A stretch of DNA of 34,694 nt from Pseudomonadota bacterium (GTDB lineage: Bacteria > UBA10199 > 2-02-FULL-44-16 > JBDRGF01): NCBI GenBank assembly GCA_043818055.1, contig JBDRGF010000162.1, forward strand, positions 1 through 34,694, given 5' to 3'. Every line of letters starts with the position of its first letter. The stretch's first letter is position 1. This document shows positions 1 to 34,694 of this stretch, piece by piece. A program made the translations under genes and the position numbers. The notes below the pieces were generated by a model. That model made no database searches. It had not been told where the DNA came from and saw only the letters and a program-made list of their open reading frames with translations.

Positions 1-123
1 TGCGGAGGGCTTCGACACCCGGATTACTCCGACCTGTCGCCTCCTTAGCTACATGTCGTATGGACAATTCACATGGTAAACTCCTTTCAGCTTACAAGTC
101 TGACCAGATTTATCCTGGCGCAC
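1..123 (-). mobile_element. Group II intron, 5' end (start of domain I), truncated by the window edge
   Basis: Minus strand from 123 reads GTGCGCCAGGATAAATCTGGTCAGACTTGTAAGCTGAAAGGAGTTTACCATGTG..., the GUGYG 5' consensus followed by domain-I-like sequence. It starts exactly where the REP hairpin at 124-192 is broken. Confidence 0.85.
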
Positions 124-192
124 CATTCTGAGCGAAGCGAAGAATCTTGTAATTTCGAAAACATAGGATCCTTCGCTTCACTCAGGATGACA
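124..192. repeat. TGTCAT...ATGACA REP-like hairpin missing its first 3 nt (intron insertion site)
   Basis: CATTCTGAGCGAAGCGAAGAATC ... GATCCTTCGCTTCACTCAGGATGACA form an imperfect inverted repeat; the left-arm TGT is replaced by intron sequence. Confidence 0.8.
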
Positions 193-244
193 CCTAAAAG
201 CAATTGCGACACAGTCTCTTTGCTCAGGATGACAGGGAAGGTTT

Positions 245-931
245 TTAGAGGCACCTTAATGGGAGTCCTGCAATTTTTTCAAGGCTCTCTAATAGGAACT
301 CCGGCTTTTCCTTCGCAAGTTCGTCAAATGAAAATGGACCGCTGGCGACAGCTATCATCCGAAAACCATTTTGACGACATGCGATAATGTCCCGCGGCGT
401 ATCGCCAATGACAAATACTGCATCGTTTGGAATGGCTGTTTTCACAGCACTTTCAGCCTTTTGCTTTGCTATGGCGAGGATCTTATCACGTTCTTCACAA
501 TCGGAGGCAAACCCGCCGAACTCAAAATATTCATTTAACCCCGCGCGTTCGAGCTTGATGCGAGAACCCCTTTCAAGATTTCCTGTTGCAAGGGCCAGGA
601 TATTTCGTTCATCGGTTTTAAGATAATCGAGACATTCAAACACACCTTTCAACACATGATAATTTTCAGACTCTTTTACCTCCTGAGGAAGTAATCTTAA
701 GTATTCTTCCAGAACCCGATCGACCTCTGATCGTGGCACATCATCCCTCTTCAAAAAGCCCTTTAGGATTTCCCGGACTATTATGGGATCAGTCTTGCCG
801 TGCGGCATTATCGCGCTCATCACATCATCGACGCCATATAGGTTTTTGATAGCGCGCGTGAGCGATCTGTCACCTGCGTCCCCTGTCCAGACGAGCGTTC
901 CATCTATGTCGAAAAGAAAGAGTCGATGCAT
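245..931 (-). CDS. HAD-family hydrolase (phosphoglycolate phosphatase-like)
   Basis: Motif I LFDIDGTL, motif II ATGN, motif IV IGDTPRD; 228 aa. Confidence 0.9.
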   Translation of the reverse strand: MHRLFLFDIDGTLVWTGDAGDRSLTRAIKNLYGVDDVMSAIMPHGKTDPIIVREILKGFLKRDDVPRSEVDRVLEEYLRLLPQEVKESENYHVLKGVFECLDYLKTDERNILALATGNLERGSRIKLERAGLNEYFEFGGFASDCEERDKILAIAKQKAESAVKTAIPNDAVFVIGDTPRDIIACRQNGFRMIAVASGPFSFDELAKEKPEFLLESLEKIAGLPLRCL

Positions 932-1742: not shown

Positions 1743-1818
1743 GGTGGCTGTAGTTCAGCGGTAGAGCGCCAGGTTGTGGTCCTGGTTGTCGTGGGTTCGA
1801 ATCCCATCAGCCACCCCA
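1743..1818 (+). tRNA. tRNA-His (GTG)
   Basis: G-1 plus acceptor stem GTGGCTG/CAGCCAC, anticodon arm CCAGG-TTGTGGT-CCTGG, T arm GTGGG-TTCGAAT-CCCAT, C discriminator and encoded CCA. Confidence 0.97.
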
Positions 1819-1858
1819 GAATAAAAGAGAGACCCTTTGGGTCTCTCTTTTATTTTGG
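1816..1858 (+). terminator. Long hairpin, probable intrinsic terminator after tRNA-His (type T1; repeated at about 3190-3232)
   Basis: AATAAAAGAGAGACCC-TTT-GGGTCTCTCTTTTATT. Confidence 0.8.
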
Positions 1859-1963
1859 AATGACTTCGGGATTCGAAATGGACCGAAGGTCCAATGTTCG
1901 ACGACCAACCTTCAGAATGGTTTATCCAATAGTTGAAGTGTCGGTGCGGTTTTGCACCGACGC

Positions 1964-2092
1964 CCCATCAGCCACCCCAGAAATAAGAAACCCTGTCGAA
2001 AGACGGGGTTTCTTGTTTCTGATGTGAATTATGGATTCGAAGTGGCCCCGAATGGCCAATGTTCGACGACCAACCTTCAGAATGGTTTATCC
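1964..2092 (+). repeat. tRNA-His 3'-end copy 2, hairpin T2 and GGATTCGAA...GTTCGACGACC motif
   Basis: CCCATCAGCCACCCCA is identical to tRNA 1803-1818. It is followed by AAGAAACCCTGTC-GAAA-GACGGGGTTTCTT and the motif also seen at about 1870-1927. Confidence 0.9.
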
Positions 2093-2210
2093 TATAAGTG
2101 ACAACCCTGTTAGAGTAAGCCTCTGACGGGTTTTTGCTGTTTATGGAGACAGGAGATGGACCTGAAGCTTAAGTCTTCTAAAGGGGTCACCCATTTGTTG
2201 CCATAATCAG

Positions 2211-3020
2211 TTATTTTACTTGAACCGTTTCGTTAACCTCTAAAAAAGTTAATACAACTTTGGCGAATTCGGCAGGTGCTTCGTTAATCAAAGTGTGTGT
2301 TCCATTCTTAAATTGAACCAACCATGCTCCCGGAATGGTAGAAGCCAAGGTCTTTGAGCTTTCAACTCCTACAATGGTATCCCCGGTTCCAACTAAAAGC
2401 ATAACAGGATTGGTGATGGAGGCTAGTTTGTTCAATGGGGTTTTCCAGTGGGTTGTAACTTCTATTTGTCGCAAAACAATGGGGTCGTCAGACACCTTAC
2501 CCTTCAAGGTGTTGGCAACATTAGCTCCATCTGTTGAAGTTGCATAAATAATCGCCTTATTCACTCGTTGAGGATATTCAAGTAATAATTCTTGCGTGAT
2601 AACGCTACCCATAGAGAAGCCAAGAACATTTGTTTTGTCCACTCCAAGAGCATCAAGAAGACCGATCACATCATCCGCAAACAAATTATATGTGAATTTT
2701 TCATCACCGGCTGTTGTGTATCCCAGACCTCTATTGTCCATAATGATCAACTGATACTTTTTTGATAACTCTCCGATGACTTCATGAGACCAGCTTTTCA
2801 TTGTCCCACCCAGCCCCATGATCATGACAAGTGGTTTGCCTGAACCGATCAATTTATAACCTATTTCTATACCATTCGCATGAGTTTGATATATTGCATT
2901 GCCTTGATTATCTGAGCCGATTTTCTTGCCTGTTGGTTTGATATCTTGGTTTGATATACAAGAGCAGCTGATAGCCAATAATGCCAACAGTAAAAAAGAT
3001 AGGTAGGTTATTTTTTTCAT
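2211..3020 (-). CDS. Alpha/beta hydrolase, probable lipoprotein
   Basis: Nucleophile elbow GFSMG, IMGLGG oxyanion loop, DNRGLG, C-terminal GTH; signal peptide ending LAISC. Confidence 0.9.
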   Translation of the reverse strand: MKKITYLSFLLLALLAISCSCISNQDIKPTGKKIGSDNQGNAIYQTHANGIEIGYKLIGSGKPLVMIMGLGGTMKSWSHEVIGELSKKYQLIIMDNRGLGYTTAGDEKFTYNLFADDVIGLLDALGVDKTNVLGFSMGSVITQELLLEYPQRVNKAIIYATSTDGANVANTLKGKVSDDPIVLRQIEVTTHWKTPLNKLASITNPVMLLVGTGDTIVGVESSKTLASTIPGAWLVQFKNGTHTLINEAPAEFAKVVLTFLEVNETVQVK

Positions 3021-3181
3021 TATTCGTGTTCCCCTTATTGAAGTTCAGAATATTAAAATCGTCTAAGAATATCTATGTGATGATCATCTAATTTATTCAA
3101 ATATCAGATTTGTTTGTCTTAAGCTATCATTTTCCGCGCAAGCAGTTCTCCTCCAAAGGCGGACAAATAAAATCGTCCAGC

Positions 3182-3446
3182 CAGCCACCCCAAAATAAAA
3201 GAGAGACCCTTTGGGTCTCTCTTTTATTTTGGAATGACTTCGGGATTCGAAGTGGCCCCGAAGGGCCAATGTTCGACGACCGAGGGCAAAGGATGAGCGA
3301 AGCGAATCAAGCCCGAGGAAGTGTCGAAGCAAGGCGAGACCGACCAACCACCAGAATGGTTTATCCAATGCTGAAGTGTCGGCGAGGGTTTGTTCGCCGA
3401 CGCCCCACCGTGTCCTGAGGTTCTCGAAGGATCAGCCACCCCAGAA
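3182..3446 (+). repeat. tRNA-His 3'-end copies 3 and 4 enclosing the long form of the tRNA-linked repeat
   Basis: CAGCCACCCCA at 3182-3192 followed by T1 and the motif, near-identical to 1808-1979; ATCAGCCACCCCAGAA at 3431-3446. Confidence 0.9.
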
Positions 3447-3542
3447 ATTTTGCGACAGTAAAATTTTCCCGATATACGATACACGCTATTCGGAGTGCTG
3501 CAAAATTCGTATATTGTTCGTCGAGTAAAAGGCCTTTTTTAC

Positions 3543-3586
3543 TTCCTCCTTGCCCACCGACGTTTTGGTGGCGAGCATTCTTCCAT
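3543..3586 (+). repeat. About 43-bp TGCCCRCC...TTTTGGTGG repeat, copy 1 (others at 8201-8243 and 9186-9227)
   Basis: Three direct copies of TTCYYCC(T)TGCCCRCCGAYRTTTTGGTGG...ATT...TCCAT. Confidence 0.8.
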
Positions 3587-3689
3587 TTTCAAAGCACAAA
3601 GATGAAGTCATTGTAGGAAAGAATTGTAAGTTAGAATAATACAATGTATGTTGTCCGACATAATGACTTTGATTTGAAAGAAGGTGTGG

Positions 3690-4808
3690 ATGAATTATGT
3701 AACTTTCGAAAAAAAATGTCTGGTTGTCGTATTTGCCATAATTATCTGTTGTATCGGTTGCGCTTCTTCAGACGATGATGACTTTGTTGTCGCCGCGGAT
3801 CTGCAGGAAAGGAACGATGCGCTGAAATTGCTCTTCACCGAGAACATGTATAACACGATAACAGAAAAATCCCGCAACAATCTGGACTGCAGGGAATCCA
3901 ACCGCGCGACCTTGGGCCTCTCTGATCTTCCGAACGGAGAGTGGTATTACACTTACGATAATTTGATCGCGGGAATGGCCAAGATGGAACAGTTCGCCAG
4001 CGAAGGGGATGACAATACGAACAAGCTTGAGATCGCCGCATTTCTTGCAAACATAGCACAGGAGACCGGCACAGGGATCGATCTTGACCCGACGTATGGA
4101 GGCCCCGGTTGTTTCATCCAGGAGGTCAATCAGTACGGCAGCACTGCTTACAACAGCTCAGCCTGTGGCATAGATTATACCTGCGCAGCGGCCGGATACA
4201 TCGGAAGAGGCCCGCATCAGCTTTCATGGGATACCAACTATAAATCGTTCGGTGAGACGATGGGTGTCGGGTTAGAATATGTGACCGATCCCGACATTCT
4301 TACAAAGGACCACGAGATCGGCATTGCCGGATCGATATGGTTCTGGGGGCATGCGGAACATGCCAGCGGATGGCCCTCGAATATTCCCTATAAACCATCG
4401 GCCCACAACGTGATCGTCAGCAAATGGACTCCGACAGATCGCGATGTGACTTGCGGAAGAACACAGGCAGGCCTTGGCATCATAACCAACATTATCAACG
4501 GCGGCCTCGAATGCGGCAATAGATCTTCGGCTGTAGGACGCGAAAATGCTGCGAAACGCGTCACTTACTTCAACAATATTGCCGCAGTGATGGGAGTAAC
4601 GGTGCCGGACGGCTGGGCCGACAATTGCACGGGACAGCAGGACTTTGAGGAATGCCCCTCGTACAGAAACCTGACCCCGACCACGCGATGCGGGCTCAGC
4701 TGGGCGGAGGCCCAATCGAAGTGCGGGACATACTGTCAATCCGATGTTGATTGTTCCAACGATGAGAAATGTTTCGCGAATCTCAGCAGAACCCCCTGCC
4801 CGAATTGA
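3690..4808 (+). CDS. Glycoside hydrolase family 19 chitinase, lipoprotein with a C-terminal Cys-rich domain
   Basis: [44 protein letters not shown] and [10 protein letters not shown] motifs; lipobox-like IGC. Confidence 0.92.
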
Positions 4809-5025
4809 TGAACGGTGAGTACAGAGACATCCCATCGACTGAAAATGATTGAATATTATAATACTCCTTTTTAACGATTTCACCGTTCCACCAATATCTA
4901 GATGGCCCTTTGATAATAAAAGAACCCGCTACGAGTCGTTTCTTTACGAGAACATCAGATATGCTGTTCGCTTCGTTTCTATCAACAGCGCTGATAGTTA
5001 CCTGACAGTAATTGTTATCACTCAT
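4783..5025 (-). pseudogene. cutA: Truncated CutA divalent-cation tolerance protein
   Basis: EANSISDVLVKKRLVAG...SRYWWNGEI matches the CutA N-terminal half. The HxYxxPxI C-terminus is absent and the ORF runs into the end of the chitinase gene. Confidence 0.75.
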
Positions 5026-5029
5026 TTTT

Positions 5030-5947
5030 TTACCTCCCTGAGATTGCTAAAATAGTATTATTGAGTCTATCTATGAAATTTTCTTCAAACTTTGTTTTCA
5101 ATAAACTTTCATATTGAGCAGCGGTATATCGATATGAAATTGCTGCTATAATTTTATCACCATCTTTGACACCATGAGCCTTTAGTTTTGGGGGAACTCT
5201 TTTCAAAGTAAAGGCCGTTTCTATGCGTTGATTTCGGAATGAAACAGCGTATTCAACTTGGTTATCAACTAGTCCCAAAATTGACAGAGGTGCAAACACG
5301 AATTTCCGGGCATTATTGGTCTTATAGCCCTCCATCAGACGTTCAACATCAATGTCACCAATGCATTCAATGGCCGATAAGCAAACATCACTTTTATGTG
5401 ATGCACAGTCAGCTAGTAACTTGAGAATATATTCAGAATCAAAATTCATAAAAGTCAGACCAATTATGATGAGTTTTGGGTAGTCAATACCAGCTTTTCT
5501 GATAGCCTCAGCAGTATTTTCAAATAGCATCTTTTTAGCATACGATTCTTCTACACCTCTTCTTGCAATTGCATCCCGAGCGATTTTACAAAAATGATCG
5601 TTAACATCTATAGCCCAATATTGAACGCTCTTTCCTCTAGCCAATAAAGTGTCAATTATTGAAAAAGTTTTCGATGGATAGCCAGGTCCGAGATCTACGA
5701 TGAGAATCGAATCATCCTTAAAATAATCTACAAGTCTCTCAGAGTTGTTTTTTATAAGAATCTCAGCTGGATCGTGAAATCTTGAGGTATATCTATCATC
5801 TCCCATCAGCTCTAAGTACAGTTTCCCCTGAGAATCTGTTAAATACAGGTTTTTGGGATTGTAGAAGTTCCATACACCAGGCCTCTCAGGATCAAGAACA
5901 AGATCTTCTAAAATATCTTTTTTGGTCAGATCGGTGGGAATTACCAT
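5030..5947 (-). CDS. EgtD-like (Methyltransf_33) SAM-dependent methyltransferase
   Basis: PKNLY...G..LY.ELM...RY....E..IL, IVDLGPG...KT, YWAIDVN, GLTFMNF and ISYRYT. Start probably ATG 5947. Confidence 0.8.
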   Translation of the reverse strand: MVIPTDLTKKDILEDLVLDPERPGVWNFYNPKNLYLTDSQGKLYLELMGDDRYTSRFHDPAEILIKNNSERLVDYFKDDSILIVDLGPGYPSKTFSIIDTLLARGKSVQYWAIDVNDHFCKIARDAIARRGVEESYAKKMLFENTAEAIRKAGIDYPKLIIIGLTFMNFDSEYILKLLADCASHKSDVCLSAIECIGDIDVERLMEGYKTNNARKFVFAPLSILGLVDNQVEYAVSFRNQRIETAFTLKRVPPKLKAHGVKDGDKIIAAISYRYTAAQYESLLKTKFEENFIDRLNNTILAISGR

Positions 5948-6104
5948 GATGATCTGCTTACAGAAAATAAGAATAAGAGGCAAGTTGATTTCAGTTATAC
6001 GGCTATTTCCATACACACAGTTCTATACGTAGCCGTTGAGCAGAAGGTGCGAAGCGGATTCTGTGATTACGGATACGGATCCCCGGAGGGGAAAATTGTC
6101 CATC

Positions 6105-6209
6105 CAGCCACCCCAGAAATAAGAAACCCTGTCGAAAGACAGGGTTTTTTGTTTCTGATGTGAATTATGGATTCGAAATGGACCGAAGGTTCAATGTTCG
6201 ACGACCAAC
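6105..6209 (+). repeat. tRNA-His 3'-end copy 5, hairpin T2 and conserved motif
   Basis: CAGCCACCCCAGAAATAAGAAACCCTGTCGAAAGACAGGG...GGATTCGAAATGGACCGAAGGTTCAATGTTCGACGACCAAC, near-identical to the unit starting at 1969. Confidence 0.9.
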
Positions 6210-10359: not shown

Positions 10360-10453
10360 TATATAAAATCAAAAACTTTTAAAGCAACTTTGTTGAACTA
10401 CAATGTCATCCCCGTGAAAGAGACTTTTGGCGAACTAATCCCCCTCCTTGATA

Positions 10454-10570
10454 GAGGCTGTTGCCGAACTAAAATGTAGGGGCAACCCCCCGTGGTTGCC
10501 CTCTTATAAGGGCAGGCACAGGGGCCTGCCCCTACAAAAACATAAAAAAACAGACTTCAGCAACAGGCTC
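10454..10570. mobile_element. MITE-like element: TIRs GAGGCTGTTGCCGAA/TTCAGCAACAGGCTC enclosing a GTAG-REP doublet
   Basis: Inner TGTAGGGGC...GCCCCTACA at 10475-10536; related to 22838-22953 and, inverted, to 31608-31704. Confidence 0.75.
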
Positions 10571-13379: not shown

Positions 13380-13389
13380 ATGGGAGCTT

Positions 13390-13477
13390 TGTACACAAAA
13401 ATGTGTATAAAGTCAAACGATTTTATACACAAATTTGTGTATAATATAGGTCGTATTTATACACAAGTTTGTGTATA
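13390..13477. promoter_or_regulatory. Three 20-bp palindromic operators (consensus TATACACAAATTTGTGTATA) with a 34-bp period
   Basis: Copies start at 13390, 13424 (perfect) and 13458. The first fills the spacer of a minus-strand TTGACT-17-TACAAA promoter. Confidence 0.8.
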
Positions 13478-13544
13478 AGTTATCCTATTGAGATATTTTT
13501 GTGGGAGGAATTTGACCCCGTCTGAAAAATTAATTCATTTTTTT

Positions 13545-17967: not shown

Positions 17968-17988
17968 GTCTTCTCCTTGATATAATAA

Positions 17989-18046
17989 TGTAGCGGTCGA
18001 CCCATGTGTCGACCCGTTTTAAAGGGCAGACACAGGGGTTTGCCAT
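17989..18046. repeat. Degenerate GTAG-REP doublet
   Basis: Similar to 22859-22920. Confidence 0.7.
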
Positions 18047-18124
18047 AATTTCTTAAGTCTTTGACTTCCATCTTGGAAAGCCTTCCTTACTCTCTAAAAA
18101 TATGGCGACTATCACTAGTTCCAA

Positions 18125-22498: not shown

Positions 22499-22837
22499 AT
22501 TTACCCAGCCAATCCATCGGCCGCAAGGCAATCGAATGGAATCATAAAATGAAAGCGCCTCACCCGGTTTCAATACACTTATGGCAGAACCTCTGATGCC
22601 ATGAACAACTTTTAGATATTGATGATGCAATGTTGTCAGCACTGTGGAGCGTTCTTCCATCACTGTTGTTAAGGGGGGTAATCCAAAGTGTCTTTCAAGC
22701 AGTGAACTAGCAATCTGGGTTTGTATTTTTTTAATCCATCCCATATTACAACTGTCGGCAGTTTTCTGGATTTGTTGCTTACAGAAAAGGCCAAAATCCG
22801 ACACTCGATTTCACCATACTTTCCTCCCTCCCTTGAG

Positions 22838-22953
22838 GAGGCTGTTGCCGAACTTAAATGTAGGGGTCGACCCATGTGTCGACCCGTTTTAGAGGGCTGA
22901 CACATGGGTCAGCCCCTACAAAAATATTAAAAAACGACTTCGGCAACAGCCTC
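22838..22953. mobile_element. MITE-like element with perfect 15-bp TIRs around a GTAG-REP doublet, inserted in the loop of an outer hairpin
   Basis: GAGGCTGTTGCCGAA...TTCGGCAACAGCCTC; flanks CTCCCTTGA and TCAAGGGAG. Confidence 0.8.
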
Positions 22954-23073
22954 GTCAAGGGAGAGGGGCAAAGAGGTATCGGATTGTGAAAGGGTTTTAA
23001 TCTGAGCGTTATATCACTATAGCGTTTAGAACCATGATATTTATTAAATTGTTACAAGGAATTGTTCCGATCA

Positions 23074-29006: not shown

Positions 29007-29145
29007 TAATAATTAACGCTGTGTTCGAGTTTTTTTCGTAACATATTGATTTTTGTAGGGGCGAACCCATGTGTTCGCCCGCAATCTTTTCGGGCAGACA
29101 CGCGGGTCTGCCCCTACAAAAATTAGCACACAGCGTTAATTATTA
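29007..29145. mobile_element. MITE-like element with perfect 18-bp IRs around a GTAG-REP doublet
   Basis: TAATAATTAACGCTGTGT ... ACACAGCGTTAATTATTA; inner REP at 29054-29118. Confidence 0.75.
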
Positions 29146-30449: not shown

Positions 30450-30567
30450 AGGTTGTCCGAAAATATCATGTTTTGCTTTTTGTAGGGGCAGCCCCCTGTG
30501 GCTGCCCGGGTTTTAACGGGTCGGCACAGGGGGCAGCCCCCTACATTAATACATTTTCGGATAGCCT
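30450..30567. mobile_element. MITE-like element (AGGTTGTCCGAAAAT/ATTTTCGGATAGCCT) around a GTAG-REP doublet
   Basis: IR matches at 13 of 15 positions; inner REP at 30481-30545. Confidence 0.7.
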
Positions 30568-31607: not shown

Positions 31608-31704
31608 GAGCTTGTTGCTGATGATATTTTTGTAGGGGCGGTCCCCCGTGACCGCCCTTATAAAAGAGGGCAACCACGGGGGGTTGCCCCTACATTTGAG
31701 TTCG
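31608..31704. mobile_element. Decayed inverted copy of the 10454-10570 MITE
   Basis: GAGCTTGTTGCTGA, REP at 31631-31694, then GTTCG. Confidence 0.65.
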
Positions 31705-34486: not shown

Positions 34487-34563
34487 AACAATTCGCACTC
34501 AAAAAAGAAATAATTTCAGCTCTGTAAAAAATTCTATAATCGTTTAACTTTTTAGTAGGTTGT

Positions 34564-34694
34564 GTAGAGTAGAAAGGGGCCGCTGTTGATGCGGCGCCCT
34601 TCCCCTCATCGCACCGGACGTGCAGATTTCCCGCATCCGGCGCTCCCAGCTATTTCTCCATGAGCATGCACAAGAGAGCCTCACAAGTACACCA
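34564..34694 (-). mobile_element. Group II intron, 3' end (domains V and VI), truncated by the window edge
   Basis: Minus-strand DV GCGCCGGATGCGGGAAATCTGCACGTCCGGTGC (34643-34611), then GATGAGGGG...CTACTCTAC ending in AC. Confidence 0.93.

Follow-up and report, generated by a model that had tools for sequence, protein, structure and literature searches.

Class C introns target terminators and attC sites, and a CGC triad is a trait of class C (IIC). RmInt1 (class D) homes into ISRm2011-2, a transposase gene target. Homing of En-minus introns such as RmInt1 depends on the replication fork and is primed on nascent strands. The group II intron that we describe here resembles RmInt1 in being an En-minus intron that seems to rely on EBS-IBS pairing to spread among the copies of a selfish repeated target, but the target of RmInt1 is a transposase gene, whereas here it is a non-coding REP of 30-70 bp. 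It resembles class C introns in lacking an endonuclease, in its short EBS1, in its intergenic sites beside palindromes, and in its CGC triad. It differs from them in that its RT lies outside the class C branch, its lineage has EBS2, and it cuts inside a stem-forming arm. (A class C intron from the same genome, L001, cuts after a hairpin and a T run.)

More similar are the introns of class F, or IIF (Ge.ur.I1, Pe.th.I2, So.us.I2, D.a.I1, and Ni.ha.I1; PMC3552965, PMC3753933). Like our intron, these have an RT-X protein without an endonuclease, are about 1.9-2.0 kb long, and share a domain V loop of 5 nt, the placement of alpha' in a terminal loop, and the EBS1/EBS2/EBS3 layout; also, the RT of our intron groups next to that of Ni.ha.I1 (g3). 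The 5' exon of Ge.ur.I1-1 is reported to contain repeated IBS1 motifs (CAUUCG, AUUCG) that resemble the flank of L207, a member of the clade described below. The available text mentions neither REPs nor other repeats as targets of class F ("repeat" has zero matches in that of PMC3753933), and our intron differs in having a CGC triad and a weak EBS2 match.

REPs are targets of several insertion sequences (IS1397, IS621, ISPa11, ISPpu9/10, and ISRm19/22; PMC1525189). For these, as for our intron, the REP is a safe, multicopy target with a fixed insertion position, but they are DNA transposases, whereas the intron is a ribozyme retroelement. (A table in PMC1525189 includes a group II intron of P. 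putida with a weak REP association, 2/9.) The REPs in question belong with the CGTC REPs (Di Nocera et al. 2013, PMC3733652), which are defined by a CGTC/TGTC head, an 8-9 bp stem that starts with AT, a 4-5 nt loop, a CCA tail, and an extragenic location, mostly as head-to-head dimers. Ours share the TGTC head, 8-bp AT-start stem, 4-5 nt loop, CCA tail, and dimers of those families, which include dRS3 of Neisseria and RPE-4/6 of Rickettsia. The available text of PMC3733652 has zero mentions of "intron", whereas here the CGTC head motif is the probable homing site of an intron.

Among broader sources, class C is named as the subgroup with a specific intergenic context or terminators, while other classes hide in mobile elements (PMC12584367, PMC7306698, PMC8919778). 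The available part of PMC7306698 has zero matches to "repeat" or "palindrom", that of PMC8643678 does not cover class F, and PMC12306157 has zero matches to "intron". We found no report of a REP-homing group II intron in the literature searched, which included few subscription papers; the supplements of surveys could list such flanks. The novelty lies in the likely change of target to CGTC REPs, by a class-F-like intron with guides that match the head of such a repeat.

One intron breaks the assembly at both ends of the window

The window, by which we mean the whole 34,694-nt stretch of DNA that was analysed, is the entire contig G000:C162 of a fragmented assembly (166 contigs). One multicopy group II intron breaks this contig at both ends. 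The features at the two ends are:

1-123, minus strand: 5' end of the intron (the first 123 nt of domain I, starting with GTGCG), truncated by the contig end; identical to positions 4-126 of the full-length copy L054 and to 4 other contig ends
124-128, minus strand: IBS1 (GAATG), the last 5 nt of the 5' exon, which pairs with EBS1 (CAUUC)
132-136, minus strand: candidate IBS2 (TTCGC), with 4/5 pairs to the EBS2 core GCCAG in a register picked post hoc
124-192, minus strand: head-to-head dimer of a CGTC/TGTC-type REP, broken 3 nt short of its end (the terminal ACA is absent)
193-255, minus strand: outer composite repeat; 255-241 is an IS/MITE-like end (GGTGCCTCTAAAAAC), and another TGTCATCC unit, incomplete, starts from 234
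245-931, minus strand: HAD-family phosphatase-like gene, directly upstream of the intron and on the same strand (weak NCBIfam matches, all under the cut-off)
34564-34694, minus strand: 3' end of another copy of the intron, ending in CTCTAC
34694-34681, minus strand: last codons and stop of the RT ORF
34645-34610, minus strand: domain V, with CGC triad and 5-nt loop, followed by a short domain VI
34561-34563, minus strand: start of the 3' exon, ACA, which is the final three bases of the REP; the A at +1 is IBS3 and pairs with EBS3 (U)

On the minus strand, the REP dimer at 192-124 ends with ...CTCAGAATG, and the intron follows from 123 with GTGCGCCAGG, which has the GTGCG start. The dimer folds as one long stem once its missing end is supplied. 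Ends that resemble the composite repeat at 193-255 are also found after several 3' exons and empty REPs. At the right end of the window, the Rfam model Intron_gpII matches 34645-34564 (50 bits); the intron's 3' terminus, CTCTAC, is at 34564, and ACA is at 34563-34561.

When we compared both window ends to the genome with BLAST, the 5' end of the intron was identical at 5 contig ends and the 3' end was identical at 6. The intron is therefore multicopy, as an earlier note on this DNA had proposed, and it explains the assembly breaks at both ends of the window: all of the identical ends lie at contig ends, and L054 is a collapsed copy. The 5' exons end with G(A/G)ATG in 5/5 cases, with TTCGC 8-13 nt upstream, and the 3' exons begin with ACAA in 6/6. 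As a chance estimate for the 3' flank, the genome has 5,031 GRATGA sites, and 150 of these (3%) continue with CAA. All five 5' exons are of REP type rather than unrelated sequence, and the genome has 91 distinct empty REP ends. The junctions at both sides (5/5 and 6/6) thus agree with the proposed insertion at ATG^ACA of an abundant REP.

The earlier note had also matched the ACA at the right end to the REP's missing bases. The 3' exon there (ACAACCTACT...) has intact homologues in C68, C63, C166, and C140, each with a REP-type end before it (..GGATG or ..GTGATG) that is fused to an IS-like end. The 5' exons at C62 and C29 are of the same REP/IS-like composite type, so the right-hand ACA is not a chance match. 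Judging by these homologues, rather than by a pairing of 5' with 3' ends in the assembly, the 5' exon of the right-hand copy is probably also a REP. The window's ends are two different insertion loci of one intron. So, the claim of the same junction at both ends holds for the shared ATG^ACA site, but the ends are not halves of one locus.

The full-length intron and its class

L054 comes from a scan of metagenome contigs with a domain V pattern, which gave at least 120 loci. It is a public metagenome contig of 1,946 nt, made up of ATG, a 1,940-nt intron, and ACA. Its ends are 100% identical to both window ends, so these belong to one intron family and not two. The window and L054 may share a data source, and the latter is not counted as independent support. 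Its three-base flanks are evidence for a shared site because a collapsed repeat extends only while all copies agree.

The intron body is absent from the window's own assembly: a search for RTs turned up L002, which is unrelated, and L001, the class C intron, but nothing else, and BLAST of L054 gave 11 end fragments only. A DNA search found no copy in 40 relatives, and the junction pattern found no second genome with a REP-targeting variant among 93 genomes of the phylum. (Two extra matches were chance coding sequence.) Against plasmids, blastn gave short domain V matches only. In viral contigs, the strict domain V pattern had zero matches and a loose pattern found only class-B-like introns, which served as the outgroup. 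In three DNA runs, read depth was 29, 19, and 15 at the intron end versus about 5, 3, and 2.5 on adjoining unique DNA. Depth is not the same as copy number, but the ratio of about 5-6x is in line with about six copies.

As read from L054, the RT ORF has 473 amino acids from stop to stop, with a YADD motif. Its only domains are RVT_1 (PF00078) and GIIM (PF08388), and it passes TIGR04416 (380.9 bits; the cut-off is 300). It is an RT-maturase without an endonuclease domain; the ORF lies in domain IV and stops right before domain V. The group II hallmarks are present: the GUGYG 5' end, domains V and VI, and the AY 3' end.

In a tree of 112 proteins (434 columns; FastTree only, and without g4 or basal-F references), the RT belongs to a large clade, supported at 0.957, and the closest branch to this clade is the g3 reference, Ni.ha.I1 (0.989). 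This clade is apart from g1, class D, class B, and L001, whose class C label comes from its own features and not from a named reference; g2 is outside with weak support. (The list of classes is from PMC3552965.) The g2 mark, FADD in RT5, is absent, as the RT has YADD. At the RNA level, the domain V loop has 5 nt (GAAAU), and the alpha/alpha' pair is TTGTCCAT/ATGGACAA, with alpha' in a terminal loop; by eye, the two change together in relatives. A 5-nt domain V loop and alpha' in the terminal loop of Id3 are RNA traits of IIE/IIF introns (PMC3753933). The following points speak against class C: the RT is outside the class C branch, the insertion is not just after a stem-loop, and the lineage has EBS2. 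Overall, the intron is class-F-like, not class C. (We had first labelled it g1, from the CGC triad; we rejected this because the g1 references branch elsewhere and the triad varies within the clade.)

The target is a CGTC-type REP

The genome has 195 units that fit the CGTC REP definition, versus 82 in shuffled DNA. The head is TGTC in 153 of the 195, and the commonest tail is CCA (46); in the window's subfamily, the stem is imperfect and the tail is CTT/CCT. Head-to-head dimers are present at 3/5 filled flanks and at many empty sites. By crude gene calls, 60/81 empty REP ends are intergenic. The intron's cut falls within the REP head motif as read on the complementary strand, and leaves the last 3 nt of the REP beyond it (ATG^ACA).

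A near-identical CGTC dimer element with many copies also breaks the assembly, at the ends of C11, C17, C18, C71, C92, C131, C156, and C165. Every assembled copy of this C11/C17/C18-type dimer is empty, yet one such junction occurs in runs X1 and X4. The window also has REPs of a second family, with GTAG-type dimers (TGTAGGGGC...GCCCCTACA), at 10442-10551, 17981-18050, 22820-22971, 29007-29145, 30473-30544, and 31623-31704. Some of these are nested in IS-like ends, and none adjoins an intron end.

Upstream of each of the five filled 5' exons (C162, C96, C62, C56, and C29), at a distance of 121-187 nt, there is a called ORF that shares the intron's strand. ORF orientation at empty intergenic REP ends is 25 vs 26. 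(The gene calls are crude, and the C62 call is doubtful.) A same-strand ORF upstream of all filled sites could reflect a need for read-through transcription.

Filled and empty alleles in other runs

Run X2 (RNA), which comes from another study, includes a contig of 2,268 nt in which the intron adjoins a REP. It covers window positions 1-217 with 13 differences and then diverges. A REP at G000:C33, near 83,012, has 13 differences from the window over 124-217, including those listed for X2, and has the same continuation as X2. This site is empty in G000. It would thus be a filled/empty pair, unless the X2 form arose by reverse splicing into RNA.

Runs X1 and X4 contain a sixth 5' flank, ending ..CCTTCGCGGGGATG, which is not among the five that were assembled and is again a REP end. 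(We deduced this flank from the loose ends at place 126, and took these for junction unitigs by their length.) The window's own junction also occurs in a separately assembled unitig (X1 record 2, covering window 97-153). We considered an obligatory A at +4, which is present at 6/6 filled sites versus 35/91 empty ends, and dropped it because the X2 site has a T at +4.

Guide pairings and their limits

A consensus fold of 25 aligned domain I sequences places CAUUC in the terminal loop of Id3 and has an 11-nt single-stranded stretch at the position of EBS2. EBS1 (CAUUC) is complementary to GAATG, and to GGATG via one G-U wobble, which explains the one variable base in GRATG. EBS3 is U, complementary to the A at +1. 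The earlier note had asked whether EBS1 and EBS2 complement the last ~13 nt of the REP. EBS1 does pair with IBS1, but IBS1 is 5 nt (GRATG) instead of 6, and EBS2 makes only 4/5 pairs.

We then compared guides and flanks across the clade. Of 84 clade loci, 44 had no domain I boundary by simple patterns; from the other 40, we removed 2 that were mis-bounded, 2 with too little flank, and 3 that repeated another row's guides, which left 33 distinct introns. The paired cells number 148/165 for EBS1-IBS1 (shuffle mean 97.7), 120/165 for EBS2-IBS2 (101.3), and 21/22 for EBS3-IBS3 (7.6). More than 20 different EBS1 sequences are involved, and 0/10,000 shuffles reached any of these counts, which overstates the case because related introns are not independent. 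By these sequence comparisons, EBS1, EBS2, and EBS3 covary with the flanks across the 33 relatives.

For our intron, the EBS2 core GCCAG makes 4/5 pairs with TTCGC in all five filled 5' exons, and 22/91 distinct empty REP ends allow as many; the register was chosen post hoc, and 87/1,024 random 5-mers fit all five exons equally well. The criterion for EBS2-IBS2 in IIF introns is at least 5 bp: our intron has 4/5, and its lineage covaries. Sites with IBS1, IBS3, and IBS2 (at least 4/5) number 444 in the genome, and ACA is next in only 60 of these. With a perfect EBS2 core, there are 28 sites, none of which continues with ACA. Going by these counts, RNA pairing alone does not account for the site specificity. 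If only intergenic three-guide sites are considered, ACA is next in 36/66 (43/87 under a looser gene call), so the loss of genic copies by selection could account for much of the remaining specificity. Protein contacts at +2/+3 are the other candidate.

Targets of related introns

Among loci with DNA, the sister group (support 0.994) has arrays of heptamer repeats, of the CTCTGCG type, as its target. Relatives from genomes with long contigs are in repeats particular to those hosts. Of the G041 copies, 2/2 are in such heptamer arrays; the pattern has 22 empty copies there, whereas neither the reversed control nor any of four other genomes has one. By eye, 5/5 copies in G044 and 4/4 in G043 are in other arrays that match their own EBS1, while four copies in G042 are less clear as to repeat. 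No obvious repeat was seen by eye in the flanks of clade members L157, L166, L181, L184, and L192. The closest proteins (P0003-P0018) are 68-95% identical to our RT, and the CAUUC guide is in no other locus among those compared.

Two other clade members, L178 and L180, appear to be in other palindromic repeats (GTAG-like; GGGGTGCGA hairpin apex), which suggests further switches of target family. Many clade members (L080, L101, L159, L074, L044, L172, L175, L214, and L077) apparently have non-canonical 5' ends (GAGCGCCAG, GAAAGCGCCAAG, GAACGCCAG, or GTACGCCAG) instead of GTGCG. G042 also has a more distant intron (L249-L259; 45% identity) with 19 copies; the 7 copies examined have a common 5' flank ending ATTTCGGATTTCGG and 3' flanks that start with T(A/T)AA. 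An in-genome contrast is L001 (G000:C30:1-1900), the second, class-C-type intron, which has a 467-aa RT and lies right after a hairpin and T run. The 3' end of this intron is also found at the left end of C23.

Other features of the window and genome

A tRNA lies at 1744-1815 of the window, and within 1744-6209 its 3' end (CAGCCACCCCA...) is repeated several times, with hairpins and shared downstream motifs. These repeats (families D8-D15) are spaced between short gene blocks, and the region resembles a series of cassettes that were inserted at the tRNA. At 13388-13483, three palindromic TTATACACAAnTTTGTGTATAA units with 34-nt spacing are a possible operator or iteron array. Elsewhere in the genome, at G000:C109:1716-3251 (L002 1036-2571), a 511-aa RT that does not belong to an intron lies behind a 288-aa nucleotidyltransferase-like ORF. 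It may be a defence-type RT.

How the intron might reach REPs

The junctions and guides point to a recently spread class-F-like intron at GRATG^ACA in CGTC REP heads, which likely retrohomes by RNA-DNA pairing; we consider this account probable. The spliced intron RNP would reverse-splice into the GRATG^ACA site. With no nuclease, it would use DNA made accessible by the replication fork, with nascent strands as primers, which is the established mode of En-minus introns like RmInt1. The weak EBS2 pair (GCCAG/TTCGC) may bias the intron towards one REP subfamily, and the specificity for CA at +2/+3 would come from the protein or from the purging of genic insertions. The REP would offer dozens of harmless intergenic landing sites. 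The branch likely moved to CGTC REPs from the heptamer-array repeats of its sisters by a change of guide.

The earlier note implied a class C mechanism in which the hairpin itself is read: the RNP would recognise the REP hairpin in single-stranded DNA, and EBS1 and EBS3 would only set the cut. The site does lie in a stem, when folded, in 4/5 filled 5' exons. The exception, C29, retains only the last 13 nt of the REP and has no partner arm, and its sole TGTCAT head within 700 nt is already paired with its own dimer partner. Also, the site is within the paired arm and not downstream of a stem, which is the position used by L001, and in the tree the RT joins the g3 reference Ni.ha.I1. Across 15 relatives, pairing of the site is not raised: it is 0.53, versus 0.47 with shuffled upstream DNA, and 7/15 are above the control. 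EBS2 is ambiguous in this respect. Its pairing is weak here, perfect EBS2 sites outside of REPs are unused, and EBS2 of IIF introns is dispensable for in vitro splicing (PMC3753933), all of which would fit recognition of the hairpin, but EBS2 covaries across the lineage. We think that recognition of the hairpin is improbable.

A similarly improbable alternative is that the intron has no preference for REPs: any GRATG^A would do if EBS2 pairs to some extent, only the intergenic copies would survive, and REPs would simply be the commonest of such sites. Given that ACA is next in 36/66 intergenic three-guide sites, the probability of 6/6 by chance is about 0.02-0.03 in that pool. However, 209 matching sites are within ORFs in sense orientation, in which splicing ought to reduce the harm of an insertion, and 0/6 copies are there. 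The additional junctions in X1/X4 and X2 are REP ends again, and the guides of relatives repeatedly match repeats. Finally, every junction is at a contig end of a fragmented assembly, which is where misassembly induced by repeats could create joints between REP and intron. But the joint is exactly at the GTGCG or AC boundary of the intron in 11/11 cases, with different flanks; those flanks are complementary to EBS1 and EBS3; and the same window junction is in the separately assembled X1 unitig. An assembly artefact is thus very hard to credit. We return to retrohoming by RNA-DNA pairing at REP heads as the preferred explanation.

Implications

With this case, a defined non-coding target can be assigned to a class-F-like intron. 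Both filled and empty alleles are present, and more than 20 EBS1 sequences are natural variants of the guide. This makes it possible to test the role of EBS2 in IIF introns, where splicing in vitro can do without it (PMC3753933), and to ask how high specificity is attained by an intron that has no endonuclease and a core guide of 6 nt. In the literature surveyed, the intron is the first retroelement partner for CGTC REPs. It also accounts for a recurrent type of assembly break in genomes from metagenomes.

More broadly, and more tentatively, the class-F lineage may be a specialist parasite of small dispersed repeats that re-tunes its 5+1-nt guide in each host. Our intron would then have been caught after a jump from heptamer arrays to CGTC REPs: EBS1 and EBS3 fit, EBS2 fits poorly, and REP copies are still being filled within one population. 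We regard this as a serious possibility, just short of an even call. If it is true, then there would be a second route, besides that of class C, to safe intergenic targeting, by guide and not by hairpin shape.
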